A stretch of 64,000 nucleotides of DNA. It comes from Candidatus Kaiserbacteria bacterium (GTDB lineage: Bacteria; Patescibacteriota; Minisyncoccia; Phycocordibacterales; UBA2100). The stretch covers positions 352,933 through 416,932 of the forward strand of contig CP066682.1 in NCBI GenBank assembly GCA_016432285.1. The letters run 5' to 3'. Positions within the stretch are counted from its first letter, which is position 1, and each line of letters opens with the position of its first letter. Positions 30,407 to 35,305 of the stretch are shown in pieces. The notes beneath the pieces are model-generated. The model made no database searches and had not been told where the DNA came from. It saw only the letters and a program-made list of their open reading frames with translations. The position numbers and the translations under genes are program-made.

Positions 30407-30452
30407 ATGAATATCCGCAACTTCTCAATCATCGCACCCATCGTCGCGGCAC
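30407..30452 (+). pseudogene. Displaced 5' fragment of lepA (MNIRNFSIIAPIV...)
   Basis: ATGAATATCCGCAACTTCTCAATCATCGCAC encodes MNIRNFSIIA, versus MHIRNFSIIA at the real start 30577. The Arg codon differs synonymously (CGC vs AGA). Confidence 0.75.
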
Positions 30453-30607
30453 GCCGCTCCCTGAGAACCCACGGTTCTCAGCGGTCGACCTGCGCGCACT
30501 CGGTCGACCTGCTCTCCGTCACGGGAAAACTACAGTTTTCCCGACCCCTTTCGAACGATGTGAGCGATTTCTGAATATGCACATCAGAAACTTCTCAATC
30601 ATCGCAC
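30419..30607 (+). mobile_element. ORF-less 151-bp structured insertion (module 1) bracketed by a 19-bp direct repeat of the lepA 5' end
   Basis: AACTTCTCAATCATCGCAC occurs at 30419-30437 and 30589-30607. Hairpins lie at 30461-30481 and 30522-30543. CGGTCGACCTG occurs twice (30482-30492 and 30501-30511). Confidence 0.7.
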
Positions 30608-32358
30608 ACATCGATCATGGCAAGTCGACGCTTGCGGATCGTATGCTCGAAATCACGGGTACGATCGAGCCGCGCCGCATGCAGGAGCAGGTGCTCGATC
30701 GCATGGACTTGGAGCGCGAGCGCGGCATCACGATCAAAATGCAGCCCGTGCGGATGCGGTGGAATCATGAGGGCGCCGATTACATTCTCAATCTTATCGA
30801 CACGCCCGGACACGTTGATTTTGCATACGAAGTCTCGCGAGCGCTCTCCGCGGTCGAGGGCGTGATTCTGCTCGTGGACGCGACGCAGGGCGTGGAGGCA
30901 CAGACGCTCTCCGTGCTTTCGGTGGCAAAGAGCCTCGGCCGCACCATCATTCCGGTCGTGTCGAAGATCGACGCGCCGGCGGCGCGTGTGGAGGAACATG
31001 TGGCGGAGCTTGCGCTCCTTTTGGGGTGCGAGGAGCGCGACGTGCTCCGGAGCTCCGGCAAGACGGGCGAAGGCGTGCCCGCTCTCTTGAACGCGATTGT
31101 CGAGCGGATCGCGCCGCCCGAGAGCACGGGCGAGAAGACCCAGGCCCTCGTCTTCGATTTCGGCTATTCGGATCATCGCGGCGTGATCATCTACATGCGC
31201 GTCTTTGGCGGTTCCGTAAAAAAGGGCGACGAGCTGCGCCTCGCGGCGGCCGACGCCTCGTTCACTGCGCTCGAAGTGGGAGTTTTGATGCCTGAAGAAA
31301 AGCCGTGCGGAGAGTTGCTCGCGGGAGAGATTGGCTACGTCGTTACCGGCATCAAAAAACCGGGCATCGCCTCCGTCGGCGACACGGTTACGGCCGCAAA
31401 AAATGCCGCGCCCCCGTTTTCTGGCTACCAAGCGCCGTCGCCCGTCATCTGGGCTTCCGCGTATCCGGAGTCGCAAGACGATTTGCCGCTCCTACGGCAG
31501 TCGCTCGAGCGCCTGCGGCTCTCGGATTCGTCGCTTTCGTATGAAGAAGAATCTTCGGGCGTGATGGGCAAGGGATTCCGCTGCGGCTTCCTTGGCATGC
31601 TGCACCTCGAGATCGTTATCGAGCGGCTCCGCCGGGAGTTTGGTCTCTCACTCGTCGTCACGCAACCGACGACCGTCTACGAAATCACACGCACCAACGG
31701 CAAGGTGGAGGAAATCTACGCGCCCGCGCGTTTTCCCGACGACGGAACGGTGGCGAAAGTGCGGGAAGTCTGGGCGAAGGTATTCGTGATCTCGCCGCCA
31801 GATTATATCGGTGGTGTGTCGCAGCTTTTGTATGAGCATGAGGCGAAGGTGGGGGAGACGGAAACGATGCCCGACGGCAAGATGCAGCTTTCGGCCGAGA
31901 TGCCGCTGCGGGAGCTCATGCGGGGATTCTTCGATCGACTCAAGAGCATCTCATCCGGATTCGCCTCGCTCTCGTACGAGCTTCAGGGATTGCGCGAGGC
32001 CGACGTCACGCGGCTCGACGTACTGGTGGCGGAAGAGCTCGTCCCGGCTTTTGCGCGCATCGTGAGCCGCCGGCGACTCCAGACGGAGGCCGAGGCCATG
32101 GTGGAAAGACTCGAAAAGCTTTTGCCGCGGCAGCTCTTCGAGCTGAAGATTCAGGCGAAGGTAGCCGGGAGGATCATCGCCTCACGTAGAAAATCAGCGA
32201 TGCGCAAAGACGTGACGGGCTATCTCTATGGCGGCGACGTGACGCGAAAGATGAAACTGCTCGAAAAACAAAAACGCGGCAAAAAGAAAATGCTCGCGCG
32301 CGGCAAGGTGGATATACCCCACGATGTTTTCCTAAAGGTGGTGCGGGAGACCAACTAG
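30577..32358 (+). CDS. lepA: Elongation factor 4 (LepA)
   Basis: IRNFSIIAHIDHGKSTLADR, DTPGHVDF, and the C-terminal LepA domain. Confidence 0.97.
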   Translation: MHIRNFSIIAHIDHGKSTLADRMLEITGTIEPRRMQEQVLDRMDLERERGITIKMQPVRMRWNHEGADYILNLIDTPGHVDFAYEVSRALSAVEGVILLVDATQGVEAQTLSVLSVAKSLGRTIIPVVSKIDAPAARVEEHVAELALLLGCEERDVLRSSGKTGEGVPALLNAIVERIAPPESTGEKTQALVFDFGYSDHRGVIIYMRVFGGSVKKGDELRLAAADASFTALEVGVLMPEEKPCGELLAGEIGYVVTGIKKPGIASVGDTVTAAKNAAPPFSGYQAPSPVIWASAYPESQDDLPLLRQSLERLRLSDSSLSYEEESSGVMGKGFRCGFLGMLHLEIVIERLRREFGLSLVVTQPTTVYEITRTNGKVEEIYAPARFPDDGTVAKVREVWAKVFVISPPDYIGGVSQLLYEHEAKVGETETMPDGKMQLSAEMPLRELMRGFFDRLKSISSGFASLSYELQGLREADVTRLDVLVAEELVPAFARIVSRRRLQTEAEAMVERLEKLLPRQLFELKIQAKVAGRIIASRRKSAMRKDVTGYLYGGDVTRKMKLLEKQKRGKKKMLARGKVDIPHDVFLKVVRETN

Positions 32359-32483
32359 CCCGTGATGATCGCGAGGACGCCCGGCGCAAAGAAAATCACC
32401 ATGCCGATGATGATGAGGACGGCGACGACGCTCCAGATGGCGTTGACGATCCGTTTGGTACGCTTGTGAAAAAGAAAGCTCAT
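32355..32483 (-). CDS. Possible 42-aa single-TM peptide
   Basis: MSFLFHKRTKRIVNAIWSVVAVLIIIGMVIFFAPGVLAIITG. TATAAT lies 15 nt upstream, and there is no SD sequence. The rest of the 165-aa ORF is antisense to the FtsB-like gene. Confidence 0.3.
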   Translation of the reverse strand: MSFLFHKRTKRIVNAIWSVVAVLIIIGMVIFFAPGVLAIITG

Positions 32484-32508
32484 AGGTGAAGTGGTACGAT
32501 TATAGCGT

Positions 32509-32886
32509 ATGAGCTGGAGTCGGCAAAGGAACGATCTCGGCCGCAGGCTCTTGAGGCGGCTGGGGCTCCTCGCGCTTCTTGGGGTCGTCGTTTTTGCCAT
32601 CTCGGGCGTATGGGGAGTCTTTGGCAAGGCGCGGGACTCGCAGACACTCCGCGCGGAGGCAGAAGTGGCACGCAACGACCTCCTTTCGCGCGAGGCGCAG
32701 CTCGAAGCCGATTTGGAGAAGCTGCGTACCGACCGCGGCGTCGAGGAAGAGCTCCGTACGCAGTATTCGCTCGCCGGGGAAGGCGAGCGGCTCATCGTAA
32801 TCGTCGATCCCTCGAGCACGACCCCGATCAAGGCGACCTCTTCGCCGATCAAGCTGTGGTTCCAAAAGATTTTCCCCTGGTGGTGA
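32509..32886 (+). CDS. Septum formation initiator family protein (FtsB/DivIC-like)
   Basis: N-terminal TM helix, coiled coil (LRAEAEVARNDLLSREAQLEADLEKLRTD), and EELRTQYSLAGEGERLIVIV. Confidence 0.7.
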   Translation: MSWSRQRNDLGRRLLRRLGLLALLGVVVFAISGVWGVFGKARDSQTLRAEAEVARNDLLSREAQLEADLEKLRTDRGVEEELRTQYSLAGEGERLIVIVDPSSTTPIKATSSPIKLWFQKIFPWW

Positions 32887-32901
32887 TGTATAGTATTCCG
32901 A

Positions 32902-32972
32902 CCGCGGGATTAGTTTAGTGGTAGAACGGCTGCTTCCCAAGCAGCAGATACGGGTTCGATTCCCGTATCCCG
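32902..32972 (+). tRNA. tRNA-Gly (anticodon CCC), CCA not encoded
   Basis: Acceptor GCGGGAT/ATCCCGC, anticodon loop TTCCCAA, T-arm ACGGGTTCGATTCCCGT. TATAGT 32887-32892 lies 9 nt upstream. Confidence 0.9.
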
Positions 32973-34367: not shown

Positions 34368-34543
34368 TGCCCTCGGCAGGAATCTCCCTCGACTCTCGGC
34401 TCGCCGTCGCTCGCCTCGGTCTGGGCACCGCCTCGCTGCTCGGCCTGCTGGCCTCGCATCGCTCCGGCGTTCGATTCCTGCACGCGCCATGCAGCGGCAC
34501 GGCGCTCTCGATCACTTGCTTCGCAGTGCCCTCGGCAGGAATC
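34366..34543 (-). mobile_element. ORF-less 140-bp structured insertion (module 2) bracketed by a 19-bp direct repeat of the tRNA-Arg 3' end
   Basis: AGTGCCCTCGGCAGGAATC occurs at 34366-34384 and 34525-34543. A hairpin lies at 34484-34505. There is a 13-bp perfect inverted copy of the tRNA T-loop plus 3' T-stem (34469-34481 vs 34535-47). Confidence 0.7.
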
Positions 34544-34598
34544 GAACCCACATCTCTCCCTTAGGACGGGATAGCTCTATCCATTGAGCTACGAGGGC
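34527..34598 (-). tRNA. tRNA-Arg (anticodon CCT), CCA not encoded
   Basis: Acceptor GCCCTCG/CGAGGGC, anticodon loop GTCCTAA, T-arm GTGGGTTCGATTCCTGC. TATAGT (complement of 34608-34613) lies 9 nt upstream. Confidence 0.85.
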
Positions 34599-34632
34599 GA
34601 GGCCGCAACTATAGCATGCTAAGATTTCAGGC

Positions 34633-34923
34633 ATGGATCCGAGTCAGGAAACGCTGAGAGAGATTCTTCGTCTCACACAGGAGAACAACCGCATGCTCCA
34701 CAAAATGCGCCGCAGCGCGTTTTGGGGCGGGATCCTGAAGCTCCTTCTGTACGCCGCGCTCCTCGGAATTCCGCTGTGGCTCTACATCACGTACCTTGGC
34801 CCCATGATGCAGGAGGTCATACAAACGTATCGCGACATCCAGGGCACCGGCGCCAACGTCTCGGCGCAGTTCACTGATTTTCAGGGAATGCTTCAGCAGT
34901 TCAAGGATAATTTCTCGCAGTAA
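34633..34923 (+). CDS. Small hypothetical membrane protein (96 aa, 2 TM)
   Basis: TAAGAT 34620-34625 lies 7 nt upstream of the ATG. The central hydrophobic pair is FWGGILKLLLYAALLGIPLWLYITYLG. Confidence 0.55.
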   Translation: MDPSQETLREILRLTQENNRMLHKMRRSAFWGGILKLLLYAALLGIPLWLYITYLGPMMQEVIQTYRDIQGTGANVSAQFTDFQGMLQQFKDNFSQ

Positions 34924-34999
34924 AACAGGTCGACTTCCAATAAAAAGATCTGGTATAGTACCGCAATCGCCCGGAGAGGTTCGTTTCTGGGCGTCGCTT

Positions 35000-35072
35000 G
35001 CCCAGATAGCTCAGGTAGTAGAGCATTCCCCTGAAGAGGGAAGGGTCGTCAGTGCAAATCTGACTCTGGGCA
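35000..35072 (+). tRNA. tRNA-Phe (anticodon GAA) with a non-canonical T-loop TGCAAAT; CCA not encoded
   Basis: Acceptor GCCCAGA/TCTGGGC, D-arm GCTCAGGTAGTAGAGC, anticodon loop CTGAAGA, T-arm GTCAG-TGCAAAT-CTGAC. TATAGT 34954-34959 lies 40 nt upstream. Confidence 0.85.
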
Positions 35073-35305
35073 CCTCTTGGAAACCCACGGTTTTCCAACG
35101 CTCGCTTCGCGAGCTGTCTTCCTCCACGGGAAAACAATTGTTTTCCCGACCCCTTTCAAAGCCCAGAAGAGCCGTGCCTGCGCACGGCTCGTGTCGGATT
35201 TGCAAGCCGGAGCCATGTCGCCTTGGCGACAGGCGAGGCCGGGCAGGAGCCACTTAACGAGCGCAGCGAGTTTAGTGAGCTGTCGCCAAATCTGACTCTG
35301 GGCAC
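35055..35305 (+). mobile_element. ORF-less 213-bp composite insertion (module 1 + module 2) bracketed by a 19-bp direct repeat of the tRNA-Phe 3' end
   Basis: CAAATCTGACTCTGGGCAC occurs at 35055-35073 and 35287-35305. Hairpins lie at 35077-35098, 35100-35114, 35127-35148 and 35169-35190. The segment GTCGGATTTGCA (35193-35204) is complementary to tRNA-Phe 35053-35064. Confidence 0.7.

Follow-up and report, generated by a model that had tools for sequence, protein, structure and literature searches.

The window analysed here, a stretch of 64,000 nt (64 kb) from Candidatus Kaiserbacteria bacterium (contig CP066682.1, positions 352,933 to 416,932), contains three genes whose ends are duplicated around small gene-free inserts. 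These are lepA (30577-32358), tRNA-Arg(CCT) (34526-34598, minus strand) and tRNA-Phe(GAA) (35000-35074, plus strand), the two tRNA genes being identified with ARAGORN and Rfam. A 55-codon open reading frame (ORF) with a second lepA-like start lies upstream of lepA at 30407-30574. Three 19-mers were each present exactly twice in the window, at the coordinates given in an initial annotation of this DNA, and were maximal, that is, not extendable by one base. The inserts, 140-213 bp in size, held no ORF, as had been claimed. Our analysis confirmed the window observation as a whole: three exact 19-mers, two modules common to different inserts and, in every insert, a segment complementary to its target. 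In the list below, "native" and "carried" denote the presumed origin of each gene-end copy, for which the evidence is given later; attL and attR are the left and right attachment sites, attP is the attachment site of the mobile form, and P0 to P3 are hairpins.

30407-30437, plus strand: native lepA start and first 10 codons, now a pseudo-start (attL side), including the first copy of the 19-mer AACTTCTCAATCATCGCAC (30419-30437)
30438-30460, plus strand: left arm of the lepA element, a diverged target mimic (CCATCGTCGC versus ACATCGATC) followed by a variable hairpin, GCGG-CACG-CCGC
30461-30552, plus strand: Module 1 scaffold at lepA (covariance model score 55.9 bits, P1 covariation, fold z = -4.85)
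30461-30481, plus strand: P1 of this Module 1
30482-30511, plus strand: its variable middle, with two direct copies of GGTCGACCTGC
30522-30543, plus strand: its P3, CGGGAAAAC-TACA-GTTTTCCCG
30544-30552, plus strand: its invariant ACCCCTTTC
30553-30568, plus strand: target-matched segment GAACGATGTGAGCGAT, an inverted copy of lepA 30601-30616
30569-30607, plus strand: spacer and carried lepA 5' end (ATG at 30577, codons 1-10, second 19-mer copy at 30589-30607), fused to the native gene body
34366-34384, minus strand: displaced native 3' end of tRNA-Arg(CCT), the distal copy of the 19-mer AGTGCCCTCGGCAGGAATC, abutting the stop codon of a convergent glutaredoxin gene
34385-34524, minus strand: Module 2 element at tRNA-Arg, with body (34385-34468), matched segment (34469-34481), covarying hairpin (34484-34505) and spacer (34506-34524)
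34525-34598, minus strand: functional tRNA-Arg(CCT), of which the part from T-loop to 3' end (34525-34543, the other 19-mer copy) is the carried replacement
35000-35074, plus strand: functional tRNA-Phe(GAA), of which the 3' part (35055-35073, first copy of the 19-mer CAAATCTGACTCTGGGCAC) is the carried replacement
35077-35157, plus strand: Module 1 scaffold in the spacer of the tRNA-Phe element (53.7 bits), with P1 (35077-35098), P2 (35100-35114), P3 (35127-35148) and ACCCCTTTC (35149-35157)
35169-35286, plus strand: Module 2 at tRNA-Phe, aligned with the Arg copy and a tRNA-Gly copy in the relative L162, with covarying hairpin (35169-35190), matched segment (35193-35204) and body (AGCCGGAGCC...GCGAGGCC..., 35205-35286)
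35287-35340, plus strand: displaced native 3' end of tRNA-Phe, comprising the distal 19-mer (35287-35305) and the native terminator hairpin

The remaining exact repeats of at least 17 nt in the 64 kb were an internal tandem repeat (14371/14500), one 17-mer pair and a Module 1 18-mer, GTTTTCCCGACCCCTTTC, common to both window copies of that module (30535/35140). At lepA the 19-mer is the exact core of a 37-nt duplication with 86% identity that runs from the ATG on. A chance origin was ruled out, since the 19-mers are exact and maximal and shuffled sequences seldom matched the complementarity observed between insert and target.

The lepA and tRNA-Phe inserts had been said to share Module 1, and a covariance model (R1) recovered both; it found no third copy in the window and two copies in 677 kb of relatives. 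To estimate the size of the family, one-genome-per-species contigs were scanned for the 26-nt invariant motif of Module 1 (GGGAAAAC-N4-GTTTTCCCGACCCC), which was found at at least 119 loci. Nearly all of these were labelled Patescibacteria (Saccharibacteria, Parcubacteria/Paceibacteria, Berkelbacteria, Kazan and similar groups); about 10 bore other labels, which we took as given. Several metagenome-assembled genomes held two or three Module 1 loci each. The family therefore extends beyond the window, with the motif at these loci and a third copy of Module 2 in L162. It is widespread in Patescibacteria and, as far as we searched, apparently undescribed, no description of it having been found in the literature.

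Across the Module 1 loci the parts always stood in the same order. The series opens with a copy of the target gene's short end, after which a few bases imitate, often in altered form, the sequence that continues the target; the variable hairpin P0 follows. Then come P1 (GAAACC-N3/4-GGTTTC), an optional P2, P3 (CGGGAAAAC-N4-GTTTTCCCG) and the invariant ACCCCTTTC. About 6 nt after the latter lies an inverted copy of the intact target, then a spacer, which in tRNA-targeting copies is often a terminator, and finally the second gene-end copy, joined to the gene body. The scaffold measures about 70-100 nt and the whole elements are 140-250 bp and free of ORFs. Targets are the T-loops of tRNA genes of many specificities, the 5' ends of the genes for the translational GTPases EF-G, LepA and TypA, and a few intergenic sites. 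In tRNA genes both scaffolds are inserted in the T-loop between positions ~56 and 57; in the GTPase genes the insertion point lies in the codons for IIAHIDxGK (AHID, G1 motif). The elements are oriented with the gene end toward the gene body, and consequently lie antisense to tRNAs and sense to GTPase genes. The sequence GCACCCATCGTCGC of the lepA left arm is common to EF-G, LepA and TypA elements of different genomes.

The repeat length of 19 bp holds for the three window loci and fails as a property of the family. Across about 107 relatives the exact flanking repeats measured about 12 to 79 bp and always ran from a fixed inner point to the gene end. We attribute this variation to the repeat being the stretch over which donor and recipient happen to be identical; three repeats of 19 bp in one window are accordingly a coincidence. 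A fixed 19-bp target-site duplication was rejected on the same range of lengths (27 bp in L162) and because the two copies differ at synonymous sites.

The compensatory changes noted earlier in the first hairpin of Module 1 were also found across the family, with 4-6 Watson-Crick or wobble pair types at positions 6-8 of P1 (six at position 6). RNAalifold on the first MAFFT alignment recovered P3 only, with the P1 classes out of register; P1 pairs were hence counted with an anchored script. The four loop-proximal pairs barely vary. P1 mismatches counted by strand comprised 12 G.T versus 7 A.C, and a P3 variant in L126 (GGGGAACC/GGTTCCCC) contains two compensatory pairs. The lepA Module 1 element folds with a closing stem that links the native copy with the matched segment. 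A pairing of the P3 tetraloop with the bases after TTTC was considered and rejected, as the correlation, by reading, follows target-specific subfamilies and not structural pairing.

Module 2 is shared by the tRNA-Phe and tRNA-Arg inserts and has a covarying hairpin, as described in the initial annotation, and the third copy, at tRNA-Gly(CCC) in L162 (64% LepA identity, 27-nt repeat), could be aligned with them. The blocks of this copy are the covarying hairpin, GT(G), the variable segment, (G/A)(C/A)CGGAGC, GCGAG(G/T)CC and GGGCAGGAG; the T-arm of tRNA-Gly is complementary to its variable segment, CGGGAATCGAA. Read antisense to the tRNA, all three copies begin with the native end and continue through body, matched segment, hairpin and spacer to the carried end. 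Because this layout is shared by the three copies, the tRNA-Phe insert is a Module 2 element with a reversed Module 1 in its spacer. The fold of the tRNA-Arg element has a closing stem that joins the distal copy to the matched segment. No match to the Module 2 patterns was found among the Module 1 loci, and the third copy surfaced among lepA relatives only. By its order of parts, Module 2 is a second scaffold that follows the same logic as Module 1.

Each window insert carries a segment that matches its own target. The Arg segment (34469-34481, GTTCGATTCCTGC) pairs with 34535-34547 at 13/13 positions, and none of 2000 shuffles scored as high. The Phe segment (35193-35204) pairs with 35053-35064 at 11/12 positions plus one G.T (3% of 2000 shuffles as high), so that the complementarity claimed for both tRNA inserts was upheld. 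At lepA, a 19-nt stretch had been matched to codons 2-12; the match is instead one of 16 nt (30553-30568) to codons 9-14 (30601-30616), with 14/16 paired (0.25% of 2000 shuffles as high). The same relation holds in the family. When the 27 nt after the scaffold were compared with the downstream target of their own locus, a score of at least 12 was reached in 48% of 106 non-redundant copies, as against 1% in cross-locus comparisons. Among 15 GTPase-type copies, whose targets all encode AHID, the own host took the first rank for 12 copies and the second rank for 3, and the mean match was 13.7/16 to the own host and 11.0/16 to other hosts; the window lepA segment also ranked its own host first among the 15 GTPase targets. 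As all of these targets encode AHID, this ranking indicates that the segment follows host-specific synonymous variation.

The segment spans the junction and matches the intact target, not the altered left arm (for example GTTC versus TCAC in tRNA-type copies and CACATCG versus CCCATCG at lepA). On the Module 1-sense strand the segment-target mismatches were A.C in 15 cases and G.T in 3; on the other strand these A.C mismatches become G.T wobbles. A change from GAAC to TCAC was present in 29 of about 56 tRNA-type copies and gives tandem G.A/A.G pairs on the opposite strand. Modest as they are, these counts suggest that pairing is important on the strand antisense to Module 1.

Relatives without the inserts were found for all three window loci. 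From a metagenome scan with the window LepA, 80 lepA loci with 45-82% identity were obtained. Of the 74 that were scored, about 70 had neither the Module 1 motif nor a clear 5'-end duplication, and a Module 1 element at the same site was present in L125 only. The tRNA-Arg site was empty in six relatives (L131, L137, L124, L160, L144, L142), and in L126 and L129 a Module 1 variant stands where the window has Module 2. The tRNA-Phe site was empty in seven relatives (L124, L131, L136-L139, L153). The junctions expected of empty sites are ...CAAATCTGACTCTGGGCAC followed directly by ACAAAAAAATCCGG for tRNA-Phe and ATGAATATCCGCAACTTCTCAATCATCGCACACATCGATC for lepA.

The empty sites also bear on which gene-end copy is native. 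At tRNA-Arg, it is the distal copy that adjoins the glutaredoxin stop codon, which is exactly the arrangement of L131, where the site is empty. The upstream lepA copy retains the native upstream sequence ("tctgttaggat") and the codon 2 Asn of empty-site relatives such as L123; the downstream copy has His at codon 2. The copy distal to the gene body is therefore best read as native and the copy on the gene body as a carried replacement. Differences between the two copies are mostly synonymous (Arg CGC/AGA in the window lepA, about 15 positions in L010), which suggests that the carried end evolved as a coding sequence in another host. As the replacement end that the element brings is joined to the gene body, the gene remains whole. 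In the case of lepA it is intact from the new ATG, and the old start codon now drives a pseudo-ORF that reads through the element to a TGA at 30572-30574, 2 nt before the new ATG at 30577. This arrangement looks like translational coupling, with expression from the old ribosome-binding site.

Further observations were made at these sites. In L126 the carried 3' part of tRNA-Arg (L126:7264-7338) ends CGAGGGGACCA (G72, encoded CCA), the displaced native end (L126:7446-7462) reads GCGGGGGCAC, and in the functional tRNA the 5' strand (CCCCTCG) is offset by one base; the acceptor end was possibly remodelled by the insertion. The T-loop of the window tRNA-Phe, TGCAAAT (within 35049-35062), has G at the near-universal T/psi55 position. 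Empty-site relatives have TGCAAGT or TGCGAGT, so the oddity is native to the lineage and not caused by insertion. Just upstream of lepA, at the same site, L124 (5930-6000), L136 (4530-4600) and L138 (5905-6000) contain a different hairpin mini-insert of about 40-50 nt, which consists of a duplicated lepA 5' end, a CCCC...GGGG hairpin and CAGGC(A/G)TTGA(C/T)CAC before the real ATG. The stop of the upstream ORF overlaps the new lepA start in these three loci, and no antisense target copy was evident in the inserts.

A partner enzyme was sought around the elements. When ORFs of at least 100 aa at the 119 or more Module 1 loci were clustered, only the targets and their neighbours were enriched (translational GTPases, ribosomal proteins S7 and S12, aminoacyl-tRNA synthetases). 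No integrase was found within about 4 kb of the motif in the loci listed, and no recombinase family was enriched there. Of the 28 longer window ORFs scanned against Pfam, none encoded a recombinase; each either had a housekeeping function or matched nothing. No reverse transcriptase was seen in the ORFs near the loci or in the 28 scanned window ORFs. Rfam gave no match in the window region at E values up to 5, nor in 18 loci at the gathering threshold. A phage or plasmid origin was rejected, as viral contigs gave 0 matches for two Module 1 patterns and distant blastn searches of phage and plasmid collections returned nothing.

We consider it somewhat probable that the inserts are horizontally mobile but non-autonomous elements of 140-250 bp without ORFs, which insert site-specifically and act through a folded, target-mimicking attP and a trans-acting recombinase. 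This is in keeping with the earlier proposal, which our data support, that they form a family of miniature integrative elements, non-autonomous and ORF-less, which share a scaffold and carry target-specific segments. In the mechanism that we propose, the mobile form would carry attP as the junction of carried gene end and left arm, for example ...AGAAACTTCTCAATCATC joined to GCACCCATCGTCGCGG. This attP would pair with the inverted segment; in the resulting hairpin the stem would imitate the double-stranded target and the scaffold would be the loop, and a recombinase supplied in trans would exchange strands with the chromosomal target. Integration would then give the order attL (a hybrid site), loop, inverted arm, remainder and attR (an intact target), leaving one junction defective and the other an intact site. 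As the scaffold stays constant from target to target, the most plausible source of specificity is base pairing or homology with the matched segment and not protein-DNA recognition.

The same order is known from integrative mobile elements exploiting Xer (IMEX) of the CTXphi type, in which a folded single-stranded attP is integrated by the host XerCD at dif. After integration both kinds of element would show a hybrid site and, after a loop of some 70-100 nt, an inverted site copy, the remainder and a reconstituted intact target, with one junction defective and the other intact. In both, inverted att halves and a loop give a target-like stem with an unpaired centre, as judged from geometry; the stem imitates the double-stranded target and has its mismatch bubble where the crossover occurs, and the recombinase is not encoded by the element. 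The present elements differ in their targets, which are tRNA T-loops and GTPase AHID codons instead of dif, each mirrored by its own element. They also differ in being gene-free and 140-250 bp long, in carrying a replacement gene end and in having a conserved structured scaffold as the loop.

Several points weigh against the folded attP mechanism. It is read entirely from sequence, neither a recombinase nor a circular junction or excised form having been seen, and the analogy with CTXphi is one of geometry. The tRNA-type stem extends just 2 bp past the junction bubble, with no obvious second recombinase-binding arm, and Module 2 bodies have no significant fold (z about -0.3). The exact junction is ambiguous by several nucleotides; in a GCACCC subfamily it seems to lie before the Ala codon, in other copies after GACGC. 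The strand preference draws on 18 mismatches, and the assignment of native and carried copies on few comparisons with relatives at about 80% protein identity. The segment resembles the chromosomal target more than its own left arm, which fits a guide at least as well, and gene conversion from one inverted copy to the other could keep them matched even if the segment had no role in targeting.

A serious rival, though one we think improbable, is RNA-guided insertion, in which scaffold and segment are transcribed as a guide RNA (similar to a bridge RNA, seekRNA or omega RNA) that programs a recombinase or transposase encoded in trans, the carried end being only cargo. A constant scaffold does adjoin a variable 12-25 nt segment that matches each target across the junction, two unrelated scaffolds place this segment at the same position, and GTPase-type copies are necessarily transcribed through Module 1 from the host promoter. 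The better fit of the segment to the intact target than to its left arm also agrees with a guide. Host promoters would, however, transcribe opposite Module 1 strands in tRNA-type and GTPase-type copies. Bridge RNAs carry split left and right guides, whereas the complementarity here is one contiguous stretch. No Rfam family was matched, no IS110-like, TnpB-like or other candidate enzyme was found in or near the copies (at least 119 loci and 28 window ORFs), and the persistence of an intact target after insertion argues against a guide-directed nuclease. The other alternatives are much less likely. The initial annotation had also considered decayed islands of tyrosine integrases, that is, scars or cis-mobilisable remnants whose interior is an attP left over after gene loss. 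A duplicated gene end with a crossover in the T-loop is classical for tRNA-integrating elements, and the foreign origin of the carried end is as expected of attP; in L013, moreover, a pair of elements brackets a 6.9-kb island of defence genes. We nevertheless find this origin unlikely. The same scaffold of 70-100 nt with covarying hairpins is kept at the 119 or more loci of distant lineages, and the sizes are uniformly small. No integrase was found within about 4 kb at the loci listed, nor by eye among the L013 island ORFs of at least 90 aa. The inverted target copy has no role in a classical attP, and 5' ends of protein genes are targeted as well.

Retroelements similar to short interspersed nuclear elements (SINEs), in which a structured RNA paired to the nicked target is copied in by target-primed reverse transcription with a reverse transcriptase supplied in trans, would account for repeats of variable length and for a structured scaffold with base pairing to the target. 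This we regard as very unlikely: the repeat copies differ at synonymous sites and were therefore not duplicated in place, the repeat always ends exactly at the gene end, neither a tail nor a series of 5' truncations was present, and no reverse transcriptase was seen in the ORFs surveyed. Least credible is a reading as non-mobile cis-regulatory RNA leaders or trailers of tRNA and GTPase genes that are inherited vertically. Such RNAs would fit the high conservation of the scaffold sequence across Patescibacteria, and the pseudo-ORF and ATG at lepA are arranged in a way that implies both co-transcription and translational coupling. This reading is effectively refuted by the absence of inserts from these sites in most close relatives; in addition, different scaffolds occur at the same site, the orientation to the host gene differs between target classes, and gene ends are duplicated.

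Beyond the folded attP mechanism, we would only tentatively propose a programmable integration system of Patescibacteria, in which the scaffold and the adjacent segment of 12-25 nt direct a trans-acting enzyme to any matching site, as a folded DNA strand or as RNA. The carried end would keep the insertion harmless, and changes of the segment would allow retargeting among tRNAs and GTPases.

The elements were compared with other known systems. With tRNA-integrating islands, prophages, cis-mobilizable elements (CIMEs) and satellites they have in common the T-loop crossover, the duplicated 3' part of the tRNA, the supply of the completing copy by the element, the displaced native end at the far junction and the foreign attP-borne copy. 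Unlike these, they contain no integrase and no cargo, have a conserved structured scaffold and an inverted target copy, and hit GTPase gene 5' ends with the same architecture. Of the features of classical tyrosine-integrase elements, the repeats formed by a gene-end identity block are present and an integrase gene inside the element is absent. A constant structured non-coding module beside short target-complementary segments and site-specific insertion into conserved sequence recall the bridge RNA (seekRNA) of IS110/IS1111; the differences are that the element has no ORF for a DEDD/serine recombinase, one contiguous complementarity, a long gene-end repeat and no similarity by Rfam or by sequence. 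Rickettsia palindromic elements, homing introns and inteins are likewise selfish insertions at the most conserved sites of essential genes, occur in reduced genomes and have their damage neutralised. Here the gene end is replaced, in contrast to splicing or in-frame translation, and neither a ribozyme core nor a homing endonuclease gene as in homing introns and inteins is present.

Three further classes were considered and rejected. Miniature inverted-repeat transposable elements, or MITEs, which share conserved terminal inverted repeats and make a target-site duplication of constant length, do not fit, as the inverted arms vary from copy to copy and equal the own target, and the repeats of about 12-79 bp may differ between copies at synonymous sites. 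Elements derived from IS200/IS605 (palindrome-associated transposable elements, PATE) would be expected to have subterminal hairpins at either end, to insert 3' of a 4-5 nt site and to make no duplication, as against the repeats of 12-79 bp and the target complementarity of 12-25 nt seen here. Group I and group II introns were excluded by the absence of an intron family match in Rfam and by the gene-end duplication. The group I introns of Patescibacteria tRNAs are located at anticodon positions 35/36, not in the T-loop (PMC13011429).

If the segment sets the insertion site, the elements would represent a very small module for nucleic-acid-guided DNA insertion, with a scaffold unrelated to CRISPR, omega-RNA or bridge-RNA, in a phylum with few known mobile elements. 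Replacement of a gene end would be a third route, besides splicing and in-frame tolerance, by which selfish DNA can occupy the most conserved sites of essential genes; it extends to the 5' ends of EF-G, LepA and TypA genes, with putative translational coupling to the old start codon. It also explains pseudo-starts and partial tRNA copies that are confusing for the annotation of Patescibacteria genomes, and marks horizontal exchange among Patescibacteria. The proposed mechanism predicts that junctions between carried end and left arm exist, and that there is a recombinase recognising the GGGAAAAC-N4-GTTTTCCC-GACCCC scaffold.

Other features were noted near the elements. In L013 a larger Module 1 element occurs twice beside tRNA-Asn, at 353-626 and 7252-7525; the copies, each of 274 nt, are 97% identical and lie 6.9 kb apart. 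By eye, the ORFs between them resemble genes for a nuclease of the DUF262/HNH type, a DNA methyltransferase, a protease with a Clp fold and an AbiE-like pair; no recognisable integrase was seen among the island ORFs of at least 90 aa, which were read by eye, the 334-aa ORF only being scanned against Pfam. A second repeat of 80 nt lies outside each element copy (668-747 and 7722-7801). In five loci a family of proteins of about 220 aa is encoded within 0.2-1.3 kb of Module 1 and tRNA genes (L014:5475-6161, L025:135-764, L068:1800-2471, L074:7062-7694, L092:6473-7150). These proteins have an N-terminal helix-turn-helix (HTH) of the transposase/resolvase type and a conserved LYWAEG motif, and by eye are possibly LAGLIDADG-like. 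As a specific partner the HTH family was rejected, because it also occurs in the Module 1-free loci L149, L164 and L167 and is absent from the window.

An intergenic subfamily of Module 1 was found in L008, L011, L023, L026, L033, L085, L105 and L116 (e.g. L023:5530-5780). Its left arm is CCGTCGCAAATGAGATTTGCTCC, then ...TTTTTACGGGTACTCCCTCC, and it adjoins a GTCCTCC...GGAGGAC hairpin; no tRNA or Rfam family was detected at these sites.

Two independent Logan contigs, L001 (ending at 35057) and L122 (ending at 35077), are both 100% identical to the window. They stop on either side of the first tRNA-Phe 19-mer and leave a gap of 19 nt; a 19-mer repeat should not break a graph with k=31. The breaks may be due to variants or other copies in the sample, or simply to low coverage, and they yielded no evidence of population polymorphism. 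Elsewhere in the window, an ORF of 1380 aa (12680-16822) contains in-frame tandem repeats at 14371-14540 (3 x 41 nt, 60-69 nt spacing) and a second tandem repeat of 2 x 97 nt at 15132-15327.

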